64,000 nucleotides of DNA, from the NCBI RefSeq assembly GCF_964213995.1, contig NC_135809.1, positions 36,456,001 through 36,520,000 of the forward strand, given 5' to 3'. Positions within the stretch are counted from its first letter, which is position 1; each line of letters begins with the position of its first letter. The notes under the pieces were generated by a model that saw only the letters and a list, made by a program, of their open reading frames with translations, did no database searches and was not told where the DNA came from. Made by a program: the position numbers and the translations under genes. Source of the DNA: Mustelus asterias. Taxonomy: Eukaryota. Below are positions 3,076 through 60,024 of the stretch, in pieces.

Positions 3076-3711
3076 ACTGATTAGACACAAAAGTAAATGT
3101 CCTTCGCAATGATCTGCCTATGTACAAAATCACCAATCTCAGAAGAACTCCTCTGCTGCTCCGGTATGACATTTCCATTTTTCAGAATCAGTTATCTATG
3201 TGTCCTGAGAGTGAGAAACTCTACCAAATTATTGTATTCCTCATTCTTGGTTCCAGCTGTCCCAAAGTCATTTTACATAATTGGCTAGATTTTGAGAAAC
3301 TTGCATGTGGTATACTGAGACTGCGGTGAGCTGGCAATTTTCCAAGTACATTTTTGTGTTAAAGTGCCTGACCATGTTTGAGGACTTGAACAACATTCGG
3401 TCATAAACTTACGGATTGTGGACAGAGGGTTCCATTGTATCAGTCCAAAATAAGCCTGATTTATGGACCTCAAAGGTGAAAGGACAGCATCTCAGCCAGA
3501 CCCTCCGCCTAACTTTCTGAGCATTGCTACAGTGTTCCTTCTAAACTTATTCCTTATTTCACTACATTACTAACGCTACCGATTTTATAACGCAACAAAA
3601 ATAACTCTAAAATAATTGTTCCAAACATTTGGAAGAAAATTACAATCCATGTGATAATTTTTGACCGATTTTTTAATGCAAGTTCAAAATTTCAGAGCCA
3701 AATATACAAAC

Positions 3712-3843
3712 CCTTAAACATAGGAGCTAGCTTCCATACACCAAGGCCTCCAATGGATGTGTACTGACCAAGGGCTGTTTCCAGGAGGAACAAAGGAATG
3801 CCAGCAAATACCAGTGTCAGAAAATATGGGATCAGGAAGGCAC
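3712..3843 (-). CDS. SLC6A1-like: GABA transporter GAT-1-like, coding exon 2 (132 nt)
   Basis: atttcag|GTGCCTTCC...ATGTTTAAGG|gtttgt translates to (G)[43 protein letters not shown](G). [20 protein letters not shown] is the GAT-1-type sequence. Confidence 0.95.
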
Positions 3844-4195
3844 CTGAAATATAACATATCGAAAGGTTACTCACAATAAAATAGGTACTGAATTTTAGAA
3901 ATATGTGTCTATCTATATAATAAAATTATTTGTATCTATATGAACATATGATTTGAGATAGTTAGATTCTAATTTGCTTTCCATCTAGTCAGCATCTGAT
4001 TGTAACATGGGTCACATGCTTAGCAGACAAAAATTACATTTGCAAGCCACATACACTTCCACACAAGCATAAAATATCATTAAATATGTTGAAGCAGTTG
4101 TAACTTTGAAATTTCAAGACCAAACCAAACTTTTGACTATATTCAAAAGTGGATTTCTCCATTAGCCCACGACTCAATTTATGAACAACCCAATT

Positions 4196-6900: not shown

Positions 6901-7023
6901 TACGAATGACACTCCAACGGCACATTCTTCATGAATGTGCTCTCAAAATAACATTATAACATTTCATATGCATTGGTAATTGTCCTCCTTGAATGTGCAA
7001 TAATGTTCAGTAGTGTGTCCTAC

Positions 7024-7255
7024 CTCCACCATTTTTTCCACAGAGGTAAGGGAACCTCCAGACATTTCCAAGTCCAATGGCATATCCCACACAAGACAGC
7101 AAGAAGTCAAATTTTCCCTGCCAGTTTCCTCTGTTTGGTAAGGTTTCACTTTTACCAGCCTGACTCTCTGACGCCTCTACCATTTCTTCCGGCCGTGTCT
7201 CCCTCAGGTTCGGGGAAAAGTTGACCTCCAGCAAAGCTTGTTCTGTCTCCCCCAT
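7024..7255 (-). CDS. SLC6A1-like: GABA transporter GAT-1-like, first coding exon (exon probably extends 5' to acceptor at 7373)
   Basis: ATG at 7255; [11 protein letters not shown]...[36 protein letters not shown](G), the SLC6 TM1 signature with GAT-1-type LCGKNGGG. Donor G|gtagga at 7023. A polypyrimidine tract plus cag acceptor lies at 7374-7400. Confidence 0.93.
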
Positions 7256-8278
7256 CACTGCACGCTCACATCCACTTCACATGAAATAGTTTAAGGCTTA
7301 TGAACCCTCAGCACAACTTAATCACAGTTCTTGGTCAGAATCAAATGTTTGGTCCTGAAGATTTCACTTCACACTGCAAGTGCAAAACAAAGGAAAAAGT
7401 TTATACGAATGTTGTTTCAGCTTTGTTTACATTTAGTGGTGGGGGGGAGGGGGGGGGAGGGTGTGGTTAGCAGGGGCAAGGCAAGAAGAAACATTTTCTC
7501 AAATAAGCTAAGATATAAGATATATTGTTAACATTTCAGCCTCACAGCAGGATGGGTGAAACCCAATCTTGCCAGGTTCTAACAAATGCTTTCCTCAAAG
7601 GAAGTGTCAAAAAATAACTGGTCTGGAGGAAAACTGACACGAAGAGATTTCAAAGCTGGTGCAACAAGTCAGACAATTCAACAGCATTGGGACTTCTGCA
7701 CTACCACAGGCTTTAGTAAAACTTGACAACCTTAACGGTAGCGGAGATAGAAGTGATAGCATGAGGGAGCTGGATTAGCATCAGTAACAAATACAGTTGT
7801 TAATCCATGGAGTTGCTCAGGCTAACAGTGTGAGTAAGCTAGATCGGTAACCGACACAACATGAACCTCAGACCCGATTTTAACTTTGTGGGTTTTGAGT
7901 GAGTTGAGTCTTGTCCCCAGTGTCTTCCACTGTGCCCTCATTCAGTCAGTGTAAGTACTCCTTCCAGTCAGTTTAGAAAATACAAGCACCGACCTGTAAA
8001 AATGGCCTTACAACCTGTCCAGTTCAGTCTGTCAAACAAGTCCTCTTTTGAGATATGATCTGCATATTATTAATTTCTCCCCAGTCTCAAACCTGCTTGC
8101 CTCTGCTTCCTGTCTCATCCCCCACCATCAGCAATACTCTGAATAATAAAAAAAACAGAAACCGACATGAAAAACTGAAGGAACGAGTAATTAGCCAGAA
8201 TTTCTGATTTTATAATAGGTTCTCATATAAGATTCCTTGATATATGGTGGCATGCCTAAGGGGCTTGAGAATTTCTTT

Positions 8279-9227: not shown

Positions 9228-9550
9228 GAATCCCTACAGTACTGAAGGAGGCCATTCAGCCATTCGAGCCTGCGCTGACAACAATCGCACTCAGGCCCTT
9301 TTCCCGTAACCGTACATATTCACCCTGCTAATCCCCCTGACACGAAGGGGCAATTTATTTTAGCCTGGCCAATCCACCTAACCCGCACTTCTTTGGACTG
9401 TAGGAGGAAACCAGACCACCCAGAGGAAACCCACACAGACACGGAGAGAACATGCAAACTCCACACAGACAGTCGCCCAAGGACGGAATTGAACCTGGTT
9501 CCCTGTCACTGTGAGACAACAGTGCGAACCACTGTGACACCGTGCCACCC
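9228..9550 (-). mobile_element. HE1-type V-SINE, CR1-like tail (type A)
   Basis: tRNA-like head with A/B boxes, V-domain (GGGTTTCCTC.GGGTG.TC.GGTTTCCTCC) and CR1-like tail. Confidence 0.85.
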
Positions 9551-9630
9551 ATCTTATCACTTAAGATTAGTTTTGAGAGGTTTCTGAAAAGAAACAATCG
9601 GAACTTGTGAATTGATGTCATTAGTAACTT

Positions 9631-9840
9631 GGGTTGCAGTTTTCCAGACGTCCCTATCAGCATGATCGATCTTCTGGTCCTACCGACAGCAAGCCCTGCT
9701 GCACATTCCCCGGTGGCAAAGGGTGGAAACAATGGGAAAACCCCTTGACAGCTGCAGGACTGGAAGATCTCACTGCTGGCCAATGGCAGGCCACCTCTGC
9801 ACAACATGCCATGGGGTGGGGAGTGTGGGAAATCCTGCTC
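9631..9840. mobile_element. MITE-like element
   Basis: Imperfect terminal inverted ends and internal inverted GATCTTCTGGTCCT / AGGACTGGAAGATC. Confidence 0.45.
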
Positions 9841-9992
9841 TCGGTGTATCTTTATGCGTTGGTGTATTATTTAACATTCAAATAACTTCCAGTGATTTCA
9901 AAAACACAAGCGCACAAGAATTAGGAGAAGGAATAGGCCATTTGGCCCTCAAGTCTGATAAGATTGTGATCTATCTGATTCTGGCCTGAACT

Positions 9993-10330
9993 GGGGCGGC
10001 ACGGTAGCACAGTGGTTAGCACTGCTGCTCCACAGCTCCAGGGACCTGGGTTCGAATCCTGGCTCGGGTCACTGTCTGTGTGGGGTTTGCACATTCTCCC
10101 TGTGTCTGCGTGGGTTTCCTCCGGGTGCTCCGGTTTCCTCCCACAGTCCAAAGATGTGCGGGCTAGATTGATTGGCCATTCTAAATTGCCCCTTAGTGTC
10201 CCGGGATGCATAGGTTAGAGGGATTAGTGGGTAAATATGTAGGGTTATGGGGATAGGGCCTGGGTGAGATTGTGGTTGGTGCAGACTCGATGGGCCGAAT
10301 GGCCTCTTTCTGTGCTGTAGGATTCTATGA
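9993..10330 (+). mobile_element. HE1-type V-SINE type A, full length
   Basis: GGGGCGGCACGGTAGCACAGTGG...GGATTCTATGA; TSD TGAACT at 9987-9992 and 10328-10333. Confidence 0.92.
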
Positions 10331-13545: not shown

Positions 13546-14492
13546 TACTTGCCAATATTCCATTTGCCTTCCTAATTACTTGCTGCAGTTGCATACCAAC
13601 TTCTTGTAGCTCGTGTACCAGGGAACCCAAATCTCTTTGTACAGAAGAGTTCTACAGTCTCTCTCCACTCAAACAATGTGCTGCTTTTTATTAGCATATT
13701 ATTTGCTAATAAATCATAGTTATTATTCTATTCTTCTTGCCAAACTGGACAACTTCACATTATACTCCATCTGCCAAGTCTTTGTCCACTCACTAAACCT
13801 TTTGAAATCCCTCTATGGAGTTTAAATGTTCTTTTTACAACTCTATTTCCTATCTACCTTTATGCCACCATATTAGGTCCCTTTATCCAACTCATTGACA
13901 GAAGTAGAAAATAGTAAATAAATGAGGCCCCAACACTGACCATTGTGACACTCAGCCTGTCAACCCCAAAATGACCCATTTATCCCTACTCTCTGCTCCC
14001 TGTGAGCTAACCAACCCTCTGTCCATGTTAATTTGTTATTCCCTTCACCATGAGTTCTGTAGTAATCTTTGATGTGGCACCTTGCCAAATGCCTTTTGGA
14101 AATCCAAGAATACCACATTTACATGTTCCTCTTTATCCTCCTTTCATGTTACTTCCTCTAATAATTTAGTTAACAACATTTACCTTTCACAAAACAAGGT
14201 TAACTCTGCCCGATTTAGAAAACCATTACAAAATATCCTGCTACTGCTTCCTTAATAGTGGATATGAGTATTTTCCCTCTGACAGATGTTAGACTAACAG
14301 GTCTGTAGGTTCCTGCTTTCCATCTCCCTCCTTTCCTGAATTGACATTAGCACTTTTCCAATCCACGAGAACCTTTCCAAAAATCAGTTTTAGCCTATAG
14401 TTTTAGTTTGATAACATGTTATTTTTTTACCTTCAAAAGTGATGCAAGAATTTGGTGGGTACCCCACACATTGACCACTGAATGATTGGAGG

Positions 14493-14723
14493 CAAAATAC
14501 TGCAGATGCTGGAATCTGAAACCAAAGCAGAAAATGCTGGAGAAACTCAGCAGGTCTGACAGCATCTGTGGAGAGAGAATAAAGACAATGTTTCGAGTCT
14601 GGATGAGTCTTCATCAGAGCGCTCTGAGGAAGGGTCATCCAGACATCGAAACATTAGCTCTATTCTCTCTCCACAGATGTTGTCAGACCTGCTGAGTTTC
14701 TCCAGCATTTTCCGTTTTTGTTG
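14493..14723. mobile_element. Penelope-like fold-back element (family P1) with two divergent hammerhead cores
   Basis: Inverted arms of about 100 bp centred at 14620/14621, one arm with an extra ~28-nt tail. TSD TGA(A/G)TGATTGGAGG at 14479-14492 and 14724-14737. Confidence 0.8.
14621..14660 (+). ncRNA. Hammerhead-like motif (right arm of palindrome; mirror copy on - strand 14586-14620)
   Basis: GCU CUGAGGA A GGGUC-AUCCA-GACAUC GAAA CA UU AGC. The mirror copy reads GCU CUGAUGA A GACUC-AUCCA-GACUC GAAA CA UU. Both are partly decayed. Confidence 0.62.
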
Positions 14724-14934
14724 TGAGTGATTGGAGGTTAACACTTAAACCTGGAAAATGCAACCCTTACACAACATGAAGAAGGATGCAAGAGCCAGTT
14801 CATAGTGGACTCAGATTGCTAAACAGAACTTACACTTAGCTCCCAATTCAAAGTCAAATATTGGAGAAAAACCCAGATTGTAAAGATGGCATACATTACT
14901 ATCAATAACTGTTAAGTTAGTGACATTTCAAACC

Positions 14935-15210: not shown

Positions 15211-15636
15211 GTAGACAATTAAATCAAAACATACTGTAATAACAATTGTTCAACACCAGAGGCAAGAATTCCACAGATCGACATCCACGAGTACATTCAC
15301 TAGAAAGGATATAAGGATGATCACTATGGCCTCTCTTCTAAGGGAATTTAAACCATATTAACACAAATTTCTTTCTACATGCAATCCATGCTATACCTGA
15401 CCTAGAAGTGTATACTGTGATAGTATATAATGAGCTTTACTGTGCATCTAACTGTTGCTATACCTGAGCTGGGAGTATTCAATGTCGACACTGGATCCAG
15501 CAGTAAGTCTTCAGTGTGACTATCAATTTTGAGCACAAAACTTTCCAAAGTAAAGTTAACCCTTATATTAAAGCTCTAAACCACACTGTTTTCATACCTC
15601 TTCCAGGATTAATATCTCCCACTTTCTATGCCTTTT

Positions 15637-15735
15637 AGCTTTGACAAAGGGTCATATGAACTCGAAAAATCAGCTCCTGTCTCTCCTTACAGATGCTGCC
15701 AGACCTGCTGAGATTTTCCAGTGTTTTCTCTACTG
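15637..15735 (+). mobile_element. Family P1 decayed half-element
   Basis: AGCTTTGACAAAGGGTCAT...ACTCGAAAAATCAGCT...CAGATGCTGCCAGACCTGCTGAG; hammerhead core mutated. Confidence 0.65.
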
Positions 15736-16416: not shown

Positions 16417-16608
16417 CAGTCCAAAGATGTGCGGGCTAGGTTGATTGGCCATTCTAAATTGCCCCTTAGTGTCCCAGGATGCATAGGTTAGAGGGGTTAG
16501 TGGGTAAATATGTAGGGATATGTGGATAGGGCCTGGGTGGGATTGTGGTTGGTGCAGACTCAATGGGCCGAATGGCCTCTTTCTGCACTGTAGGATTCTA
16601 TGATTCTA
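16417..16608 (+). mobile_element. V-SINE type A, 3' half
   Basis: Nearly identical to 10145-10330. Confidence 0.85.
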
Positions 16609-16995
16609 AGATATGAGAGCAGAATTAGGCCATTCGGCCCATTGAGTGTGTTCCACCATTCAATCTTGGCTGATACGTTTCTCAACGCCATTCTCCTGCT
16701 TTTCCCCCATAACCTTTGATCCCTTTACTAATCACGAATCTATCTATCTCTGTCTTAAGTACACTCAATGATTTGGCCTCCACAGCCTTCTGGAGCAATT
16801 AATTCCATAAATTCACCACCCTCTGGCTGAAGAAATTCCTCCTCAACTCAGTTCTAAAGGGTCGTCCCTTTACTCTGAGGCTGTGCCCTCAGATCTTAGT
16901 CTCTCCTACTAATGGAAACATGTTCCCAAGGTCCACTCTATTCAGGCCTTTCATTATTCTGTAAGTTTCAATGAGATCCCCCCTCATCCTTCTAC
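16608..16995 (-). mobile_element. CR1 3' end
   Basis: Matches the CR1 3' UTR/RT end seen at 41620-42030. Confidence 0.8.
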
Positions 16996-17984: not shown

Positions 17985-18410
17985 GTGGGAGGAAACTCGC
18001 ACAGACACGGGGAGAATGTGCAAATTCCACACAGTCACCCAAAGCCGGAATTGAACTCAGGTCCCTGGTGCAGTGAAGCACCACTGCGAGCACTGCTGCC
18101 TCACAGCACCAGGGACCCACGTTCGATTCTGGCTTTGGGTGACTGTCTATGTGGAATTTGTACGTTCTTCCCGTGTCTGCGTGGGTTTCCTCCGGGTGCT
18201 CCGGTTTCCTCCCACAGACCAATGATGCGCAGGTTAGGCAGATTGGCCATGCTAAATTGTCCCTTAGTGTCCCAAGATGTGCAGGTAAGGGGGATTAGTG
18301 GGATAAATTTGTGGGTTACCGAGAAAGGGCCTGTATGGGATGCTATGCCAGAGAGTCAGTGCAGACTCGACGGGCTGAATGGCCTCCTTCTGCACTGTAG
18401 GGATTCTGTG
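17985..18410. mobile_element. Head-to-head pair of V-SINE segments (- 17985-18085; + 18088-18410)
   Basis: Inverted copies of the head/V-domain fused at about 18086. Confidence 0.8.
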
Positions 18411-26707: not shown

Positions 26708-26835
26708 ATTGATGAAAAGTCATTCATCTGAAACACTGCCTCTTATGTCTCTCTCCATAAAGGCTGCTTGACCTACTGAGTATTTCCAGCATTTTTTCCT
26801 TGGATTTCCTGCATTAGCAGTGTTTTGCTGTTTTG
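26708..26835 (+). mobile_element. Family P1 decayed half-element
   Basis: TGATGAAAAGTCATTCATCTGAAAC...GCTGCTTGACCTACTGAGTATTTCCAGCATTTT. Confidence 0.55.
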
Positions 26836-36429: not shown

Positions 36430-39400
36430 AAGCTTAAGGAAGTGAAGTCAGAGATGGAATGGGTAATCACCAGTCAGAAAAAGTGGGGCAGGCAGGAAGT
36501 CAGTGAAGCCCCAGAAAGCATCTCACTCAAGAACCGTTTTTCTGTTGAGAAATGGAGATAGTGACAGTTCCTCTGGGGAGTGCAGCCAGAGCCAAGTTCA
36601 CGGCACTATGGGTGGCTCAGCTGCACAAGGGGAAGGAGTAAGAGTGGAAGAGCAATAGTGGTCAGAGATTCGATAGTGAAGAGTGCAAATAGGTGTCACT
36701 GCGACTGCAGAGGTCACTCCAGGATAGTGTGTTGCCTTCCTGGTGCCAGGGTCAAGGATGTCACTGAACAACTCCAAGACAACCTGAAGGAAGAGAGTGA
36801 ACACTCAGAGGTCGTGGTTCACATAGGTACCAACGACATAGGCAGAAAGAGGGAGGAGGTCCCACAGAAAGAATTTAGGGAGCTGGTTGATTGAAAAGCA
36901 GGACCTCAAAAGTTGTAATTTCTGGATTACTCCCGATGAATTCAGGAACAGAAGGATAGGGCAGGTGAATGTGTGGCTGAAGAGATGATGCAGGAGAGAA
37001 GGCTTTAGTTTTCCCGGATCACTGGATCCATGTCTGGGAAAGGTGGGAGCTGTACAAGTTGGACAGTTAGCTCTTGAACTGGAATGAGACCAACTTCCTT
37101 GTGGGGAGGTTTGCTAGTGCTGTTGGGGGGGGGGGGGGGGGTTTAAACTAATTTGGCAAGAGTTGGCTCACAGTTTGTAGGTATGATCAAATATAGAACA
37201 AAAACGGAGTCAGTCTGGAAGGCAGGGCAAAGAGATGCATGTTAAGGCACAAGGGAATATGGCACGGTTGAATGGCATTTATTTTAATGCAAGCAGTCTT
37301 ACAGGTAAGACTGAGGAACTGAGGGCTTTGATTAACACATGAGGGTATGATGTTATTGCTGTCACAGAGGTATGGTTGAAGGAGGGGCAGGATTGGCAGT
37401 TCAGTATTCTGGGGTACAGAATTTTCAGACGAGATGGAGGATATAAAAAAGGACTTGGTGTTGCAATACCAAGGTGTCAATTACTGCAGTGAGGAGGGAT
37501 GATATCTCCGCAAATATCATTTGATATATATCAAATATATATATCAAATGAGGGCAGATGGGTGGAAGTTAAAACAAAAAGGGGCAATCATGTGGCTGGA
37601 CATGTACCATAGGCCCCCAAACTGTCAGGGAGAGGTAGAAGAGTAAATACGTAGACAAATCTGAGAAGTGTTAAAATAATAGGCTAATAATAGTAGGGGA
37701 TTTCAACTTCCCCAATATTAATTGGATATTCAAAGTGTGAAAGGCTTTAGAGGGGGTGAAATTCTTAAACTGCATCCAGGTTTTTGAGCTTTTTGAGCCA
37801 GCACACAGAAAGTCCTGCAAGAGAGGAGACTTTTTAAGGAATGAAGCCGGGCAGGCGGTGGAGGTGTCAATGGGGTAGCATTTCGGGAATAGTGACCATA
37901 ACTCGGTAGGATTTAAGGTAGTTATAGAAAAGGACAAAGATGGACTGGAAATAAGGTTTCTGGGGGATGGCTGATTTTAAAAGGATAAGACAGGATTGAG
38001 CCAAAGCGAACTGGGAGTAACTACATGTCGGAAGATTCACATCAGAATGGTGGGAGTCATTCAAAGATGAAATACAGAATGTACAATGCTAACATGTTCA
38101 AATAAGGGTAAAGGGTGGAACCAAGTGCAGAGAACCATTGATGCTTTAGGAGTACAGAAAGCGCAAGGGGTACTTAAAAGGAAAGAAATTAGGAGTGCGG
38201 AGAGGGGTCACTGGTGGGCAAAATCAAGGAAAATCCTAAGGTGCTCTATAAGTCTATTAAGGGCAAAAGGATAACCAGGGAACGAGTAGGACCCATTAGC
38301 GACCAAAATAGCAACCTGTGTGTGAAGCCAAAAGATGTAGGTGAGGTATTAAACTAATATTTTGCATGTGTTCACGATAAAAAAGGATGACGTAGGTATA
38401 GAAAGCAGGGATGGGGACTGTGATATAATTGAACAGATTAGCATTGAGAGGGAGGAAGTGTTAGCTGTTTTAGCAGGTTTAAAAGTGGGTAAATCCCCGG
38501 GCCTAGATGAGATGTATCCTAGGCTGCTGTGTGAGGCAAGTGGGGTAGATTTCTGGGCTCTGATGCTAATTTTCAAATCCTCTCTGGCCACAGGAGAGGT
38601 AAGATGTCTAACAACATCAGGTTAAAGTCCAACAGGTTTATAAACCTGTTGGACTTTAACCTGGTGTTGTTAGACTTCTTACTGTGTTTACCCCAGTCCA
38701 ACGCCGACATCGCCACATCACAGGAGAGGTGCCAGAGGACTGGAGGACAGCTAATGTGGTACTATTGTTCAAGAGACGGAGTAGGGAAAAAGCAGGTAAT
38801 TACAGACCAGTGAACCTAACATCAATAGTAGGGAAATTATTGGAAATATTTTTGAGGGACAGAATTAATTTCCACTTGGAAAGGCAAGGATTAATCAAGG
38901 ATAGTAAGCATGGCTTTATCAGGGGGAGATCATGCCTAATACATTTAATTGAATTTTTCGAGGAGGTGACTAGGTGTGTAGATGAGGGCAGTGCAGTTGG
39001 TAGTTTGCACGGACTTCAGTAAGGCTTTTGACAAGGTCCCACACAGGAGACTGATCAAGATGGTACGAACCCATGGGGTCCAGGCCACTTTGGCAAATTG
39101 CATCCAAAATTGGTTTAGTGGCAAGAGGCAGAGGGTAATGGTTAAAGGTTGCTTTTGCGGCTGGAAGCCTGTGTACCACAGGGATCGGTGCTGGGTCTCT
39201 TGCTGTTTGTAGTGTACATTAATGATCTAGATATGCATGTGGGGGAGTATAATCAGTAAGTTTTCAGATGACACATGAATTGATGGTGTGGTAAATAGCA
39301 AGGAGGAGAGCCTTAGATTGCAGGATGATATACATGGGCTGGTCAGATGGGCAGAACAGTGGCAAAAGTGTGAGGTGATGCATTTTGGGACAAACAAGGC

Positions 39401-40859: not shown

Positions 40860-41617
40860 ACGCTCATGTAGCATCTTTTAAAAACATCCCACGGTGCTGT
40901 GCAGGAGCATTTAAAACTAAAATATGACACTGAACTTCATAGTTATTAGGTTAGATGATCGAAGGATTGGTCCAAATTGTTGGTTTTAGAGAGGGTCTAA
41001 AAGGAAGAAAGTGAGATAACGAGGTGGAGAGCTTAGGGCCTAAGAAACTGAAGGCACGGCCACCAATGGTGCAGCAATTAAAACTGGGGATGTTCAAGGT
41101 GATGAAGGAGCAGCGCTCCGAAAGCTCGTGATTCCAAATAAACTTGTTGGACTTTAACCTGGTGTTGTGAGATGTCTTACTGTGCTCACCCCAGTCCAAT
41201 GCATCTGACCTATGTGGCTCGGAGTCAGACTTTGTTTTATAATGTTCCTGCGAAGTGCCTTGCGACATTTTATGTTAAAGGCGCTAATGTTTATTATGTT
41301 AAAGGCTTTATTATGTTAAAGGCATCTCCATATCAAAGGTAGAAATAGGCAGTCTTAGTGATGGTACAAATGAGGTCGGAAGTTCTTCTCGGGATCAAAT
41401 GTGACAGCGAGGTTGCAAACAGACTGACTTAATCTGTTGCCAGGGAGAGAGATGGAGTCAGTAGTTAGGGAATGGAGTTCAGAGCAGGGACAAAAAAAAG
41501 GCTTCAGTTCTCCTAGTATTAGAGGAAATTCTTGCACATCTAGTACGAGATACTGGAAATGCAGTCTGATCATTTCAAAATAGTGCAGGAGTCAAGAGAG
41601 GTAAAATTGAGACTAAT
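40860..41617 (-). mobile_element. L2-clade LINE 3' fragment (with nested Penelope-like piece)
   Basis: IGGRAFSFLGPKL and CNLAVTFDPE, which are L2 C-terminal motifs. Confidence 0.75.
41099..41335 (+). mobile_element. Family P2 fragment with hammerhead-like core, interrupted by an L2-tail copy
   Basis: TGATGAAGGAGCAGCGCTCCGAAAGCTC...CCCCAGTCCAATGCATCT[insert]GCATCTCCATATCA. Confidence 0.75.
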
Positions 41618-48890: not shown

Positions 48891-49561
48891 AAAGAATACA
48901 TACGGAGCAAGCAGGTGTGTGAAGAAGCAGATTTTACGGGCCAAATGGGTATTGCTGTGTTATGACCGCTTCCCATTTCTGAAATATCTTCCAGAATTAC
49001 AACTTTACAGGATCTCTACTATCTTCCTAGTCTGGCCTTTTGTATATCCATCAGTTAGCTAGCTTCTAAGCTTTGGAATTAACTCTCTTGCTTCCTTTAA
49101 AAGCACTCCTTAAAACTTATCTATTTGACCAAGTTTTTGATCATCTGTCCTAGCATCCCACATAGCAGAGTGAAAATTTTGTTCCACATAGTTTTAAATT
49201 CCTTGAGACATTTAAGTAAATTATATATGCTTCATAAATGCAAGCTGTTATTGTTATTGGTAAGGAAATCAAGTGATATAAAGTTTAAAGTTTTATTATT
49301 TATTCGTGTCACAAGTAGGCTTACACTGCAATGAAGTTACTGTGAAAATCCCATATATTGAGTTACGGCAAGTAAATGGAGTTGATGTACAAATCACTCA
49401 TGTTCTGAATGAATAGCAGAGTGGGTCTGAGGGATTGAATGGCCTCCTCCTAGTCCTATGGTTGTAAGAATTACCAACCTTTGCAAAGCAGGTCAGAAAA
49501 AAGATGGCGTGGTTTTATCGAGGTGCACCCCTAACAGCTCCATAATGCTCTGTGGGTTGTT

Positions 49562-49697
49562 ATGATGTGGAGATGCCGGCGTTGTACTGGGGTAAACACA
49601 GTAAGAAGTTTAACAACACCAGGTTAAAGTCCAACAGGTTTATTTGGTAGCAAAAGCCACACTGTTGGACTTTAACCTGGTGTTGTTAAACTTCTTA
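49562..49697. mobile_element. Family P2 fold-back mini-element
   Basis: Inverted arms plus tail. TSD CTCTGTGGGTTGTT at 49548-49561 and 49698-49711. Confidence 0.85.
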
Positions 49698-50249
49698 CTC
49701 TGTGGGTTGTTCCCAGGGATGCAGAGATAAACATTAACTGCCAATGGAGGACCATCAACTCAAGGAAAGCATTTTTGGTCAGTCTGAAATGAATTTGTTG
49801 GTCCTCCAGTGCCAAGAGCTGTCAATGGCCCAAGGTTCAGGAATACATGCCAAGGAACACACTGCCACAAAAGGACATGAGGCTCTCTCACTATGGTCCA
49901 CCAGGGGTCTGAAAACTGTATAAAAACTCAAGCTATAATTTTGACATGCGACATTGTAATTAATTGGAAATGTAGTAACATACAGCAGTAAGAAACATTG
50001 TTTTGCACTTAATGTAATGTAAACGTTGAACTGTCATGTAATATTTGTATAATTTTATGAAGATATGGGGGGGGATAAAGTCCGAATGATTAAGCTCCAG
50101 ACACACTGGCTGGAGAGGCGACAGGGAGCTAACGCCCAGAGAGCAGGAGCCCGGTCGGTAAAGGAGGGAGACTCTGGGGGAAGTTGGTGCCCCGGTCACC
50201 CGCTCACAGCGGCTTCAGCGAAGGAAACACACCCTTACCCCTCACTTAC

Positions 50250-50264
50250 CAGGAACTGGAACAT
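50250..50264 (-). CDS. STMP1: STMP1 coding exon 1 (15 coding nt, MFQFL)
   Basis: agaATG TTC CAG TTC CTG|gtaagt inside the CpG island. Human STMP1 starts MLQFL. Phase 0 joins exon 2 to give a 47-aa product. Confidence 0.9.
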
Positions 50265-50618
50265 TCTGCTCTCTAGACCGAGGTGTACACCTGGGCCTCG
50301 CTCTCACTCCGCCTTCTCCACACCGCCCAGCGCAAGAGTGCGCAGGCGCGCCCTCACTCCGTGGCGGCGGGCCGATGGCACCACCATGTTGGGAAGGTCG
50401 TTGCGCCCCTCCCCCCGGGTCAACAACAGGAATCCGTCTCCTCTCAAAACTTCACGGGAAAGAGGAGGTCAATGCGTGACCTTCCCAAGATGGCGCTGCG
50501 CTGGTGCCGTTGGCCTGACGCCATGTCCGGCTGGCAGCTGCAGTTTCCGGTTGCTGTGCAGCCGGCTGGCGAGAGTCAGTGAGGAGTGCTATCCTGAGAG
50601 GGCCGGTTCCAGCTGGGG

Positions 50619-50868
50619 ATGACGGACCGCGCTCCACTGCTCGAATACGAGGAAGGTCCCTCTGTCACCTTCCCGTCCTGGGATGGCACCAGCCCGGCTG
50701 CCGGCAACGGAGCCGGATTAGCGCCCGGCGTGTCCGGCGGCGGAGCTGCCGAGAGCTGGAGCCCGGGGTCGGAGCGGGAGGCGGCCGCGACTCCGGGAGC
50801 TCAGCAGCAGGAGGAGGAAGAGGAGCAGGTGGTGGCGGTGTTTGTGGTGACTTTCGACACCAGAGCAG
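50619..50868 (+). CDS. DENND11: DENN domain-containing protein 11 (KIAA1147/LCHN), coding exon 1
   Basis: MTDRAPLLEYEEGPS...EEEQVVAVFVVTFDTRA(G), then donor G|gtgaga at 50869. Matches human APLL..EGP and EEDQVVAVFVVTFDPRSG. Confidence 0.92.
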
Positions 50869-51071
50869 GTGAGAGGCCGGGTTCTCAACAGCAGCATTCC
50901 CCCCATACAGAGTCCGCAATTAAAATGGCTGCAGAGTCAACGGGAAGATGGCGGGGTATCCGTGACAGCAGCAGGAGGAGGAGGAGGTATCCATGGGGAC
51001 AGGGAGGAGGAAGGGAGTATCTGTGGTACTCGAGGGGGGCAGGGGATGGGTTGTCTGTCCCCTACTTTGGT

Positions 51072-51179
51072 AAGAGTTTTAACAACACCAGGCTAAGGAT
51101 CTTTATCCTGGTGTCTTTAGCCTGGTGTTGTTAGAACTCTTACTGTGTTTACCCCAGTCCAACGCCGGCATCTCCACAT
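51072..51179. mobile_element. Family P2 fold-back mini-element
   Basis: Inverted arms plus tail. TSD CCCTACTTTGGT at 51060-51071 and 51180-51191. Confidence 0.85.
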
Positions 51180-52133
51180 CCCTACTTTGGTCACAGCTAA
51201 GTGATTTTAATCTGCAACAAAATGTAGGATTGATGCCTATGTCCCTTTCATGTTATCGAGATGTAAAAAGTTCACTGCAGACCCAGTTGCTCGGGCGTAA
51301 CTTAGTCACAGTAAGAGAGAGAATACAACAGGTGATTGAAATGTCATTGTTCCTTTCATTGGAAGCCAGTTGGATTTGACTTAGATTGACCTCTGCCATG
51401 TAGAATCTGCTTAGATAAATGAATTATCCTGGAGTTTGTGGTGGACGAGATGGGAAGGGCACAGTAAGTCCAATGCTAGCATCTCCACACAAAATGGGAA
51501 AGGGTTGCTGCCTGATTGCTACCTGCCATCCTGCAAGTTCTGTTGGATGGTTGTGGCATTGGTTGCTTTTGAATTTGCCAAGAGTTGTATCCAAGATCAT
51601 AGTGTGCCGGAGTGAAAATGATATGAAATAAAGTATTATCACGTATTTAACATTAGATTAAATGAACAAGTGGGTGTTGTAATGCATTGAGCAGAGGAAG
51701 CCCAATGCTCTATCTACTCTGTTCTTCCAAATATGCCGTGGGTTTCCTTACTGTGATTCAAGGGACAGTAATCTTGTATTGTGTCAGCTTTCCTTGTAGG
51801 AATTCAGTGAGCCTTTTTAAAACCTTACCGTGCTTTGCTCTTGACTACTAATAGTAATCTGTTCTGCAATTCTATCAGCATTACTTGCCTTTCTTCCCAG
51901 TCCAGTCATCTATATATTTTGTGTAATAAACTGAAGATTGCTAAGTCGAGGATACCTTTTGGAATTGTGAATCTGAAGTTTTGGATATGTTCTTAGGGAA
52001 AAGGGAGTTTTGGGCAAGATAAATTCCAGGCCCTAATTGTTGCTGTCTGTCCCTCAATTAGAGGATGACGTCTACTCAGGATCACAAGTTTCTTCCATGG
52101 GTCTTCATGTGACTGAATAGGCTGATTCTCTAT

Positions 52134-54163: not shown

Positions 54164-55345
54164 AGTAGTGGGGTCCGGAGTGCAGGGTTAACTCCCTTTT
54201 CTTTCCTTCTGTACCACTGCTCTGCCTCCTCATTAAGACGTTGTCTTAAAACACGATACAGCTTGATGGACAAGTTGTCACCATTCTGAAGGATAGTAGC
54301 AAGCTCTTCCCAATCATTAATGTCAATGCTACCACACTTCAAGGAGGGCTTTGGGTTGGCTTTGAAGTGTTTTCTTTGTGCTCCCTTGGAATATTGGTCA
54401 CTTGAGCGTTGAGAAAAGAGGACCTAGCAGGGGGGGATGATTTTCGGCCTTCCAGGCAGAATCCAGTTCATTGAAGTTGATTTTACCACAGTTTTCCATG
54501 AATGCTTGTGGAGCTGGCTTCGAGAAGGACATTAACATTTGTTCCACGGCCTTTCATTAAATTCACAGGATGTGACAGAGGTATTGCTGCTGTAATCTTT
54601 CGAGCACTCTTACATTTTGTTGATACACAGCCTAGGTCTCACTGCAGTACAGGAGTGTGATGGTGACTATTGCTCTGTACACTTGGACTTCTGTTGACTT
54701 GCAGAGGCCTTTGTTGTCAAACATGCTGCTGTAGTTTGTAGAAGGCTGTGCTGGCACAGTTAATCCAGTCTGAAATCACCTCATCAATGGTGACTGTTAG
54801 AGAGATGGCCGCCAAATATTCCAAAGTGTCTCCTTCAACATTTCTGGGAGGTGAGTATCTGGCTGACCAGGTGCAAGTTGACATGAGTTTTGTTTTGGCA
54901 ACATTCAAAGACATGCTGAATTTCCTCTGTGCAGAACTGAAAAGAGTTGCTTGCAAATCTGGTGCAGGGAATGCATAGGAATGGATAATGTAGAGGTACT
55001 TCGGTTAACTTTGAAAATGGATTGGATTTAAAATCCTTCCAGCCTGTCCAACCTTGTATCACTTCAACCACTGGTCCCCTGACTTTAGCCTCCTGTGCAT
55101 GCCAGTTCCCCACCCTCATTTCTCTACTGCATCTTTAGTGCGAGAGATTTCAGTCGTTTTTTGAAACTCCTTCCCAAACCTTTGCACTTCTAGCTTTCAC
55201 CTCTCTGTTATGTCTAGTAGCTCTTGTACAAAGGACGGAGTGTCTGCTCTCGGGCACTTTTAGGCATTTTACATTGAAAGCATTGAGGTATTAGTGAATG
55301 TGTGTACTATAGTGAATGACTATAATGACTGCTGTTCCAAGTAAT

Positions 55346-55475
55346 CACAATAAGAGTTTTAACAACACCAGGTTAAAGTCCAACAGGTTTATTTGGTAGC
55401 AAATGCCACTAGCTTTCGGAGCGCTGCTGCTTCGTCAGATGGAGTGGATATCTGCTCACAAATAAGGAATACCAA
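55346..55475 (-). mobile_element. Family P2 element retaining hammerhead core
   Basis: Same AACAACACCAGGTTAAAGTCCAACAGG core. Direct repeat GTTCCAAGTAAT at 55334-55345 and 55476-55487. Confidence 0.78.
55406..55442 (-). ncRNA. Minimal type-I hammerhead ribozyme motif
   Basis: CCAU CUGACGA A GCAGC-AGC-GCUCC GAAA GC UA GUGG. The core is complete, stem I is CCAU/GUGG, stem II has one mismatch, and palindromic AGCU replaces stem III. Confidence 0.7.
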
Positions 55476-56789: not shown

Positions 56790-59700
56790 GACCATTGGGA
56801 CCTCTTTAGGGGCAGGGGTGATCTGTATACAAAAAACGGGTGGAACTTGAATCACACGGGGACCAATATCCTGGCCGGTAGGTTGGCTAAGGTTACTGGG
56901 GAGAATTTAAACTAGATAGGTTGGGGGGAGGGGAGCTAGAAGAGTTGACTAGGATCAAGGAACTAATTGATGGGGTGGAGGATGCAGGGGTAAGGGGAAT
57001 TACAAAATTAATGGTAGAGGAGAGGGTGCAAGTGAATGAAGGCGGTAATTTAGATAAGGGAGTAGAGGGAGAGGGTGTTCGTGACTCATCAAAGCGGGTC
57101 CAGATAAAAGCTGGAATAAGGACACTTTGCCTGAATGCACGAAGCATTCGGAACAAGGTAAATGAGTTGATGGTGCAAATCAGCACGAGTGGGTACGATC
57201 TAGTGGCCATTACAGAAACGTGGCTGAAAGGTGACCAGGACTGGGAGATGAATATCCAGGGGTATCAGGCGTTTAGGAAGAATAGACAGGAAGGAAAAGG
57301 TGGTGGGGTCGCGCTATTAATAAGAGATAATATCAGGGTAGTACTGAGGGATGACATAGGCTCTGAGGAACAAAACGTGGAATCATTATGGGTAGAGATG
57401 AGGAATAGTAGAGGGAGAAAGACACTAGTAGGTGTGGTATATAGGCCCCCAAATAATAATGTTGAGGTAGGGAGGGCTATAAACAAGCAGATAAGGGATG
57501 CGTGTAAAAACGGAACGGCAATAATCATGGGGGACTTCAACATGCACATTGACTGGCAGACTCAAGTCGGTAAGGGTGGAATGGAGGAAGAGTTCTTAGA
57601 ATGCTGTCGGGATAGTTTCCTTGAACAGCATGTTACGGAACCGACGAGGGAACGAGCTATTTTGGATCTGGTATTGTGTAACGAGGTAGGTAGAATTAAG
57701 GATCTTATTGTGAAGGACCCTCTTGGGTCTAGTGACCACAATATGGTCGAATTTCTGATTCAGATGGAAGAGGAGAAAGTTTGGTCCCAAACCAGTGTCC
57801 TCTGTTTGAACAGAGGGAAATATGATAGGATGAGGGATGAATTGGCTAAGGTAGACTGGGAGAGCAGGCTGGCAGGTAGGATAGCTGAGGAACAGTGGAG
57901 GATTTTTAAGGAGATCCTTTTCAGTTCTCAGCAAAAATATATTCCAGCAAAAAACAAGGATTGTAAGAAAAGGGAGAACCAGCCGTGGATAACGAAGGAA
58001 ATAAAGGAGAGTATTAAAATAAAAACAGCTGCGTACAGAGTGGCCAAAAATAGTGGAGAAACAAGTGATTGGGAAAAATTTAAGAAACAACAAAGAGAGA
58101 CTAAGAAAGCGATAAAGAAAGGAAGGATAGACTATGAAGCTAGGCTAGCAATTAATATAAAAAATGATAGTAAAAGTTTTTATAAATATATAAAAAGGAA
58201 TAGAGTGGCTAGAGTGAATGTTGGACCCTTGGAGGACGAGAGGGGGGAGTTAATAGTGGGAAATGAGGATATGGCTGAGTCTTTAAATAAGTTTTTTGTG
58301 TCGGTCTTCACGGTGGAGGACACAAATAGTTTGCCAAATATTAACGATAGAGGGTTGGCAGCAGGAGAAATACTTAATACAATTAATGTTACCAGAGAGG
58401 CAGTGCTGGGTAGACTAATGGGACTGAAGGTGGATAAGTCCCCTGGTCCGGATGGAATGCATCCCAGGGTATTGAAAGAAATGTCAGAGGTAATAGTGGA
58501 TGCGTTAGTGATTATTTATCAAAACTCGTTGCATTCTGGGGTAGTGCCGGTTGATTGGAAAACGGCTAATGTTACGCCGCTGTTTAAAAAAGGAAGGAGA
58601 CAAAAGGCGGGTAACTATAGGCCGGTCAGCTTAACGTCTGTAGTAGGGAAAATGCTGGAATCCATTATTAAAGAGGAGATAGCAGGGCATCTGGATAGAA
58701 ATGGTTCGATCAATCAGACGCAGCATGGATTCATGAGGGGAAAGTCGTGCTTGACGAACATGTTGGATTTTTATGAAGATGTGACTAGGGCGGTTGATGG
58801 AGGAGAACCGGTGGATGCGGTGTTTTTGGATTTCCAAAAGGCGTTTGATAAGGTGCCCCATAAAAGGCTGCTGAAGAAGATTAGGGCACACGGAGTTGGG
58901 GGTAGTGTGTTAAAGTGGATTGGGGACTGGCTATCCGACAGGAAGCAAAGAGTCGGAATAAATGGGTGTTTTTCCGGTTGGAGGAAGGTAACTAGTGGCG
59001 TGCCGCAGGGATCGGTACTCGGGCCGCAACTATTTACCATTTATATAGATGATCTGGAGGAGGGGACGGAGTGTAGGGTAACGAAGTTTGCAGACGACAC
59101 AAAGATAAGTGGAAAAGTGAATCGTGTGGAGGACGGAGAAGATCTGCAGAGAGATTTGGACAGGCTGAGTGAGTGGGCGAGGATATGGCAAATGGAGTAT
59201 AACGTTGAGAAATGCGAGGTTATACACTTTGGAGGAAATAATAACAAATGGGATTACTATCTCAATGGAAACAAATTAAAACATGCTACCGTGCAAAGGG
59301 ACCTGGGGGTCCTTGTGAATGAGACGCAAAAGCCCAGTCTGCAGGTACAACAGGTGATCAAGAAGGCAAATGGGATGTTGGCCTATATTGCGAAGGGGAT
59401 AGAATATAAAAGCAGGGATGTCTTGATGCACCTGTACAGGGCATTGGTGAGGCCGCAGCTGGAATACTGTGTGCAGTATTGGTCCCCTTATATGAGGAAG
59501 GATATATTGGCATTGGAGGGAGTGCAGAGAAGGTTCACCAGGTTGATACCTGAGATGAGGGGTTTGGATTATGAGGAGAGGCTGAGGAGATTGGGTTTGT
59601 ACTCGTTGGAGTTTAGAAGGATGAGGGGGGATCTTATGGAGACTTATAAGATAATGCGGGGGCTGGATAGGGTAGAAGTGGAGAGATTCTTTCCACTTAG

Positions 59701-60024
59701 TAAGGAAGTTAAAACTAGAGGACACAGCCTCAAAATAAAGGGGGGTCGGTTTAAGACAGAGTTGAGGAGGAACTTCTTCTCCCAGAGGGTGGTGAATCTC
59801 TGGAATTCTCTGCCCACTGAGGTGGTGGAGGCTACCTCGCTGAATATGTTTAAAGCGTGGATGGATGGATTCCTGATCGGTAAGGGAATTAAGGGTTATG
59901 GGGATCAGGCGGGTAAGTGGTACTGATCCACGTCAGATCAGCCATGATCTTATTGAATGGCGGGGCAGGCTCGAGGGGCTAGATGGCCTACTCCTGCTCC
60001 TATTTCTTATGTTCTTATGTTCTT
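56790..60024 (+). mobile_element. Young 5'-truncated CR1-clade LINE (ORF1 C-terminus + intact ORF2 + 3' tail)
   Basis: Begins in the ORF1 end (..GTNILAGRLAKVTGENLN*) and ends in a (TTCTTATG)n tail. It interrupts a minus-strand CR1 whose sequence rejoins across the insertion. Confidence 0.95.
56921..59926 (+). CDS. CR1 ORF2: APE endonuclease + reverse transcriptase, uninterrupted
   Basis: Endonuclease motifs CLNARSIRNK, AITETWL, IMGDFN, LDLVL and SDHN. RT motifs [33 protein letters not shown] and FADD. No stops over 1001 codons; the true initiation codon is uncertain. Confidence 0.93.
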   Translation: MGGGELEELTRIKELIDGVEDAGVRGITKLMVEERVQVNEGGNLDKGVEGEGVRDSSKRVQIKAGIRTLCLNARSIRNKVNELMVQISTSGYDLVAITETWLKGDQDWEMNIQGYQAFRKNRQEGKGGGVALLIRDNIRVVLRDDIGSEEQNVESLWVEMRNSRGRKTLVGVVYRPPNNNVEVGRAINKQIRDACKNGTAIIMGDFNMHIDWQTQVGKGGMEEEFLECCRDSFLEQHVTEPTRERAILDLVLCNEVGRIKDLIVKDPLGSSDHNMVEFLIQMEEEKVWSQTSVLCLNRGKYDRMRDELAKVDWESRLAGRIAEEQWRIFKEILFSSQQKYIPAKNKDCKKRENQPWITKEIKESIKIKTAAYRVAKNSGETSDWEKFKKQQRETKKAIKKGRIDYEARLAINIKNDSKSFYKYIKRNRVARVNVGPLEDERGELIVGNEDMAESLNKFFVSVFTVEDTNSLPNINDRGLAAGEILNTINVTREAVLGRLMGLKVDKSPGPDGMHPRVLKEMSEVIVDALVIIYQNSLHSGVVPVDWKTANVTPLFKKGRRQKAGNYRPVSLTSVVGKMLESIIKEEIAGHLDRNGSINQTQHGFMRGKSCLTNMLDFYEDVTRAVDGGEPVDAVFLDFQKAFDKVPHKRLLKKIRAHGVGGSVLKWIGDWLSDRKQRVGINGCFSGWRKVTSGVPQGSVLGPQLFTIYIDDLEEGTECRVTKFADDTKISGKVNRVEDGEDLQRDLDRLSEWARIWQMEYNVEKCEVIHFGGNNNKWDYYLNGNKLKHATVQRDLGVLVNETQKPSLQVQQVIKKANGMLAYIAKGIEYKSRDVLMHLYRALVRPQLEYCVQYWSPYMRKDILALEGVQRRFTRLIPEMRGLDYEERLRRLGLYSLEFRRMRGDLMETYKIMRGLDRVEVERFFPLSKEVKTRGHSLKIKGGRFKTELRRNFFSQRVVNLWNSLPTEVVEATSLNMFKAWMDGFLIGKGIKGYGDQAGKWY

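Follow-up and report, generated by a model that had tools for sequence, protein, structure and literature searches.

The 231-bp insert at positions 14493-14723 of the stretch of Mustelus asterias DNA analysed here (64,000 nt of contig NC_135809.1; hereafter the window) is probably one old and dead insertion of a Penelope-like element (PLE), in which two 5'-truncated copies of the pLTR end were twin-primed and joined head to head. It most likely represents an already described landing pattern, found here in a further repeat family. The anatomy of the insert, a high-copy family of single arms, centres that vary among its relatives, the shared origin of its two arms and the presence of the insertion in a second organism were all observed directly. 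The palindrome itself is probably not a fixed mobile unit; in the main, it does not appear to be what spreads because the other copies are single and because the centres of peptide-derived copies and of copies of a second family (family B) vary.

The insert is flanked by a 14-bp target-site duplication (TSD), for which a match of this quality at one fixed offset would be expected by chance with a probability of about 4e-7. Its parts are as follows:

14479-14492, plus strand: left TSD copy, 14 bp, TGAATGATTGGAGG, 13/14 identical to 14724-14737
14493-14519, minus strand: "tail", an extension on the long arm only, 26-27 nt
14493-14620, minus strand: long arm from hammerhead to tail end, 128 nt, a pLTR-like 3' end
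14617-14624, unstranded: head-to-head junction GAGC/GCTC with the break in its middle, spacer-free
14621-14723, plus strand: short arm without tail, 103 nt
14724-14737, plus strand: right TSD copy, 14 bp, TGAGTGATTGGAGG, 13/14 identical to 14479-14492

Over 102 aligned columns, the two arms agree in 91; they contain a single 1-nt indel, have no spacer between them, and both begin at the same G, three bases 5' of CUGA. A preliminary description of this DNA had reported a 231-bp insertion with a one-mismatch 14-bp TSD and a fold-back of about 100-bp arms around GAGC/GCTC, both of which our analysis bears out; it had also given one arm "about 28" extra terminal nucleotides, and while the extension is indeed one-sided, its length is 26 nt by global alignment and 27 nt (14493-14519) by the gap-free arm. 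Judged from sequence comparison, the tail may be slightly clipped in this insert, as the copies at 26710 and 63158 run a few bases beyond it, and G14492 may be the end of the element rather than part of the TSD, as loose ends of the family cluster at 14492. The plus-strand fold of the insert reaches -160.4 kcal/mol (z = -22.9), a value equalled by 0 of 200 shuffles. Differences between the arms crowd into the hammerhead (14621-14660 against 14620-14581), which holds 6 substitutions and 1 indel over 40 columns, compared to a single difference over the 52 that follow; this clustering possibly reflects conversion within the long stem. The insert is situated some 7.2 kb upstream of a minus-strand exon (7010-7276) that encodes the start of an SNF, SLC6-type transporter domain; this SNF/SLC6-type neurotransmitter transporter gene (exons 714-899, 3695-3925 and 7010-7276, minus strand; Pfam PF00209) continues past the left end of the window.

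By analogy of anatomy, the insert most likely belongs to the PLEs. It shows a hammerhead motif in a pLTR, an inverted 5'-truncated copy joined head to head (with centres that vary among its relatives), a tail at one end (26-27 nt here, compared to about 38 nt in family B) as well as a minimal type-I hammerhead core of the form CUGANGA...GAAA...UH with helices I and II. Minimal hammerheads are described as marks of PLE pLTRs (PMC4209133, PMC6765202), and PLE insertions as frequently flanked by a 5'-truncated copy in inverted orientation, with a tail of 30-40 bp at one end (PMC8557442). No reverse transcriptase (RT) or GIY-YIG domain was found beside the window copies by motif scan or by Pfam (70 ORFs of at least 45 aa near the copies, chosen from 174), and truncated copies would not carry an RT + GIY-YIG ORF. 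The window contains no long copy in which the partial tandem arrangement of direct pLTRs, typical of full PLE copies, could be seen. We take the arm repeat to follow a GIY-YIG ORF in sharks. The earlier reading of the insert as a ribozyme-bearing Penelope derivative thus holds as regards the hammerhead consensus, the inverted arms, the one-sided extension and the TSD, but not as regards the palindrome as a propagating unit.

The arm is part of a repeat that is very abundant. It is matched at five further window loci (1340, 15638, 26710, 47926 and 63158), all five of them single and decayed, and the hammerhead motif, itself decayed, is recognisable in 4/5. Contigs aligned to 14330-14620 numbered 44,152 in the run of organism A, 40,039 in that of organism B, 42,896 in that of organism D and 43,199 in that of organism E, figures that are matches per run and not copy numbers, and in all four runs nearly all of the depth over this interval lies on the arm. 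In one organism-B contig, the flank, the TSD and the tail are all present and differ by 5 substitutions and 1 gap over 176 bases, and the insertion is therefore older than the split between organisms A and B; no empty site was seen among the matches listed, with runs X9 and X13 having no coverage of 14390-14469. Contigs from organism A and organism B both end where the palindrome begins, and because contigs break at this point, short-read contigs undercount fold-backs; a family of identical palindromes could be hidden by such breaks. Joints between opposite strands are scattered over varied positions; among the 15 listed, which leave 142 more, none is present in more than 5 contigs per run, and aligner breaks confound these counts. 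Loose ends at 14524-14531 partly run on in tail-like letters with no depth step at that place, and they give no clean mark of tail-less ends. Both arms share letters that are in the minority in the family, namely G at 14542 (about 90% of depth differs) and A at 14545 (about 69% differs), as is expected from one template or from later homogenisation. A 12-bp TSD candidate around the copy at 15638 was rejected, its right copy resembling the element's own end.

With a DNA pattern, there were 0 matches in viral contigs and 0 in metagenome contigs, and two bacterial matches, in which only 23-24 nt matched, were taken as chance; an alignment-based search for relatives confirmed 0 of 600 metagenome and 0 of 34 viral candidates. 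In the literature searched, we found no account of a family of this shark type or of zero-spacer double-hammerhead stumps; the family may already be catalogued in a repeat database such as Repbase or Dfam.

Further copies were found as peptides. A search of protein representatives with the 40-codon open frame of the long arm as query gave 12 matches, of which 10 were kept as family-derived and two (P0011 and P0013) were rejected as unrelated repetitive proteins; a Pfam scan of the 12 for RT or GIY-YIG domains returned no relevant family. The 40-codon frame, which has no Pfam match, was itself rejected as a protein, as its matches look like stray gene calls on short contigs. In four of the 10 family-derived peptides, the reading passes through a clear fold-back in which the antisense arm precedes the sense arm; the antisense arm stops at arm position ~65 (P0002), 40 or less (P0005), 26 (P0007) and 68 (P0010); none of these four turns at position 1, the centre of the insert. 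Two further peptides, P0003 and P0006, may also be fold-backs, on weak sequence evidence. Arm codons 1-2 are reached by 6/10 peptides, where they are preceded by mutually unrelated residues that in none of the six match the upstream reading of copy 15638; a seventh peptide, P0010, may extend upstream of the arm edge.

Family B, which also bears hammerheads, occupies five loci in the window, three as fold-backs and two as single arms:

38589-38730: family-B fold-back, exact 12-bp TSD
49548-49711: family-B fold-back, exact 14-bp TSD
51060-51191: family-B fold-back, exact 12-bp TSD
41100-41202, plus strand: family-B single arm, hammerhead-like core (GAAA-GC-U-H type)
55341-55450, minus strand: family-B single arm, hammerhead-like core (GAAA-GC-U-H type)

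In each fold-back, one arm is longer by about 38 nt; the three centres all differ, and none of them reaches the hammerhead. The centre at 38640/41 is symmetric and without spacer; those at 49658-49661 (24-nt spacer) and 51100-51113 are asymmetric, as are those of P0002 and P0010. The arm at 41100 is without the first C of CUGA, and the fold-back at 38589-38730 sits, by translation, within a LINE-like RT fragment.

The hammerhead motifs of the insert comprise the following:

14621-14658, plus strand: minimal type-I hammerhead motif, GCU-CUGAGGA-A-stem II-GAAA-CA-UU-AGC, with stem I GCU/AGC
14624-14630, plus strand: core CUGAGGA
14632-14647, plus strand: stem II
14648-14651, plus strand: GAAA
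14655, plus strand: predicted cut, after U14655, from hammerhead numbering
14620-14584, minus strand: damaged minimal type-I hammerhead motif, GCU-CUGAUGA-A-stem II-GAAA-CA-UU-GUC
14617-14611, minus strand: core CUGAUGA
14594-14591, minus strand: GAAA

On the plus arm, stem I (GCU/AGC) closes the motif with 3/3 pairs, as had been proposed, and helix II has 5 pairs with a 1-nt bulge, while the minus arm has one mismatch in each stem (2/3 pairs in helix I and 4/5 in helix II). The family majority differs from the minus arm at 14582 (G, 96%) and 14585 (C, 94%), and the majority C at 14585 would restore the middle pair of minus-arm stem I. ACAU stands at the place of helix III in both arms. A minimal-hammerhead descriptor, which was hand-made and composed after the motif had been seen, gave three matches in the window (the two arms and 55438-55410), compared to a mean of 0.03 and a maximum of 1 in 60 shuffled windows; it finds both of the hammerhead-like cores that were initially noticed opening each arm at the centre (CUGAGGA on the plus and CUGAUGA on the minus strand). 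No Rfam hammerhead family was present among the 14 matches at E<=10, the best of which were sub-threshold hairpin and miRNA models. In six decayed copies, the stems were 72% paired and 3/8 pairs had two-sided changes; the covariation score lay above all slid controls and did not exceed shuffles, 74/500 of which reached it. Downstream, the cut site is adjoined by a pyrimidine tract ending in CACAG and then ATG (14659-14676, plus strand, mirrored on the minus arm), which by its letters is a candidate splice acceptor and start codon.

The ribozymes of the insert at 14493-14723 are, in our fold models, damaged and hairpin-locked, and an active state is unlikely. With helices I and II forced, the ribozyme fold carried a penalty of 37.7 kcal/mol on the plus and 46.9 kcal/mol on the minus strand of the whole insert, compared to 6.8 (plus) and 11.2 (minus) kcal/mol in isolated single arms. 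Because the antisense arm is transcribed first on either strand, a hairpin of about 100 bp in the read-through RNA is predicted to mask the ribozymes; an RNA whose transcription began at the centre would avoid such masking. Dimer helix III requires palindromic positions 15.2-16.2, which neither arm has (ACAU), and the duplex energy is +2.8 kcal/mol for AACAUU vs -3.5 kcal/mol for AACGUU. The hairpin together with the broken dimer-helix word makes cleavage unlikely, and on both points the proposal of a working hammerhead whichever strand is transcribed lacks support. The related proposal that AACAUU is a CpG-decayed AACGUU survives in part: AACGUU is a real family state, with the ACGU letter at 14589 making up 49%, 50%, 51% and 24% of depth in the four runs, but ACAU-type letters make up roughly the remainder, and the mirror decay at 14590 reaches only 6-13% of depth in the same runs. 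The high share of ACAU set against this low mirror decay suggests that ACAU is probably in part a source variant that the copies inherited; some of the effect may also stem from bias in favour of the reference letter.

As an explanation for the palindrome, we propose that a PLE GIY-YIG/RT protein would have nicked both target strands about 14 nt apart, giving rise to the TSD, and that each nick would have primed cDNA synthesis on pLTR RNA. An outer RT start would yield the arm with the tail and an inner RT start the tail-less arm, and the two truncated cDNA ends would then be joined head to head. Both cDNAs would have halted at the same base, the 5' edge of hammerhead helix I, which would place two hammerhead motifs back to back; the arms would thus have been joined at landing, and the palindrome would not be a unit that spreads as such. 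The enzyme involved, the step of twin priming and the absence of activity are inferred, and the twin-priming route to a fold-back is our own extrapolation from the both-strand nicking described for the anole.

A symmetric, spacer-free centre fits polymerase turn-back equally as well as two independent stops. A course less likely than twin priming is that on the same PLE origin the second arm arose by turn-back, with the first cDNA or an antisense RNA folding on itself and being copied backwards; this would alter the junction step only and not the identity of the element. Zero-spacer symmetric centres here and at 38640/41 are consistent with such a step, as are the interpretation of junction palindromes as self-priming in PMC3846280 and the turn of P0007 at a self-complementary word next to GAAA. 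However, turn-back alone leaves unexplained that the second arm stops at the tail boundary, which matches a second RT start, and the centres listed above as asymmetric (49658-49661, 51100-51113, P0002 and P0010) argue against it.

With somewhat greater reserve, we also consider that the mobilised template could be a discrete non-autonomous RNA of about 130 nt that runs from the 5' edge of helix I to the tail, a SINE-like mini-pLTR with tens of thousands of copies. Twin-primed cDNAs would then either truncate or run off a fixed 5' end, and where both were complete, blunt joining would produce a perfect double-hammerhead palindrome. The start of both arms at the same base and the 6/10 peptides that reach arm codons 1-2 support such a template; the smallness of this peptide sample, which is skewed to open frames and full-length matches, and the steep fall in depth before the hammerhead are counterpoints, and an RT pause or strong stop at the hammerhead structure would give the same pile-up of 5' ends with no separate non-autonomous element. 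The common arm start and the peptide ends hint that the template RNA begins at helix I or that the RT is strongly halted there. With regard to the non-autonomous character that had been ascribed to the insert, it may still hold for the single ~130-nt arm. Also in favour of such a template, a U-rich, acceptor-like tract ending in TTTTAG lies directly before helix I in copy 15638 (window 15600-15640, plus strand); PLE hammerheads are described as carrying a U-rich 5' flank, and a D. virilis intron as ending at helix I (PMC4209133). If a fixed 5' end proved true, the start of the PLE template RNA would be located and the hammerhead or an intron boundary tied to transposition.

It is quite improbable that the insert is a fixed non-autonomous palindromic mini-element that is mobilised whole and cleaves itself on either strand. 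Its arms do start at the same base, each with the whole motif, P0003 may turn near the same point (by eye only), and since short-read assemblies break at palindromes, identical copies are under-seen. However, no second copy with a GAGC/GCTC centre was found in the window or among the four clear peptide fold-backs, and the loose-end consensus across the junction (place 14606) reads CAGAGCT vs CAGAGCGC in the insert. A folded hammerhead would have to overcome a masking of 38-47 kcal/mol, with helix III broken as well, and minimal hammerheads are described as weak even as dimers (PMC4209133) and as protein-assisted in the anole (PMC11167929). As 5/5 other window copies are single and 4/10 peptides are otherwise centred, the earlier notion of the palindrome as propagating unit finds no support.

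That two independent insertions landed next to each other in opposite orientation, or that one arm was later inverted and duplicated locally, is very unlikely. PLEs do tend to insert beside earlier copies (PMC6765202), and the clustering of arm-arm differences (6 substitutions and 1 indel per 40 columns vs 1 per 52) would fit such readings. However, a single TSD brackets both arms, both arms have family-minor letters in common, and the same bracketed anatomy recurs in 3/3 family-B fold-backs. A MITE, or a fold-back DNA transposon whose likeness to a hammerhead arose by chance, can be set aside as highly improbable, for while the insert is short and non-coding and has a long inverted repeat and a TSD, its ends are non-reciprocal (one side extends 26-27 nt beyond the inverted part), single arms prevail and centres differ, the motif agrees with the consensus of PLEs and seldom turns up in shuffles, and a 14-bp TSD exceeds the length usual for DDE transposons. 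MITE criteria call for reciprocal terminal inverted repeats and uniform copies (PMC8969392), and with non-reciprocal ends, single arms and varied centres, the MITE label would be a misannotation, as the preliminary description had warned.

Other features of the window include a 1011-codon open frame at 56891-59926 (plus strand) with AP-endonuclease and RT domains, apparently an intact LINE ORF2, which we take to be CR1-like. A GC-rich island at 50050-51130 contains a probable first coding exon (...QVVAVFVVTFDTRAG...); this fragment had no match in Pfam and presumably resembles DENND11/LCHN. Two SINE-like copies lie head to head with a 2-nt spacer at 17988-18193, and further inverted SINE-like pairs are found at 9359-10185 and 16550-16655.

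As a single locus, the insert carries little weight: the repeat is very abundant, this copy of it is decayed, and the pattern of its insertion has been described. Taken together, such stumps record PLE integration, which is poorly understood, in the length of the TSD, the side of the tail and the type of junction, and with so many copies in these genomes, a choice between twin priming and turn-back could be made from them. They are also easily mislabelled as MITEs or, given the sub-threshold Rfam miRNA matches, as microRNA hairpins.

Among known systems, EN+ PLE insertions (PMC3846280, PMC8557442, PMC2377424) are likewise described with a head-to-head inverted copy, a one-end extension and a short TSD, as well as with a junction palindrome and an inverted part of varying size. 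The size of PLE inverted repeats is reported to differ between copies (PMC2377424), and rotifer PLEs are reported to have 8-10-bp TSDs and palindromes at inverted junctions that are read as self-priming (PMC3846280). Unlike these insertions, the insert is without an ORF or a second direct pLTR and consists of two pLTR-end stumps, and its tail (26-27 nt vs 30-40 nt) and TSD (14 bp vs 8-10 bp in rotifers) differ in length. Its motifs resemble the metazoan PLE minimal hammerheads of PMC4209133, which are likewise type I, with a short helix I, CUGANGA-H, an extra nucleotide before stem II, GAAA-N-N-U-H without loop III and a cut triplet ending in UU. Unlike the consensus given there, positions 15.2/16.2 are C/A and hence non-palindromic in both arms of the insert, and the two motifs abut with zero spacer; dual minimal hammerheads on opposite strands in Schistosoma are described as lying 100-700 bp apart, one Latimeria row in Fig. 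S3 of that study also reads C A U C, and the part of its hammerhead supplement that was searched contained no shark row.

In the account given in PMC11167929, Poseidon of Anolis carolinensis (the anole) has two alternative 3' ends with a hammerhead some 100-130 nt upstream of them, as here; its protein can nick each of the two strands and extend it, and the tail is bounded by two RT starts. Such both-strand nicking would offer a route to an inverted structure, the likeness being one of arrangement. The anole PLE hammerhead is reported to need protein, and its cleavage to be dispensable for insertion in vitro (PMC11167929). Finally, non-LTR retrozymes, which are reported in one chondrichthyan genome, are likewise described as non-coding, hammerhead-bearing and pLTR-related, with dispersed monomers (bioRxiv 10.64898/2026.07.22.740005). 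A retrozyme origin was rejected, as the arms are inverted and the locus has no tandem copy: retrozymes are described as head-to-tail tandems in which two ribozymes pair on one RNA (bioRxiv 10.64898/2026.07.22.740005), whereas in the head-to-head insert one RNA bears one ribozyme and its antisense.
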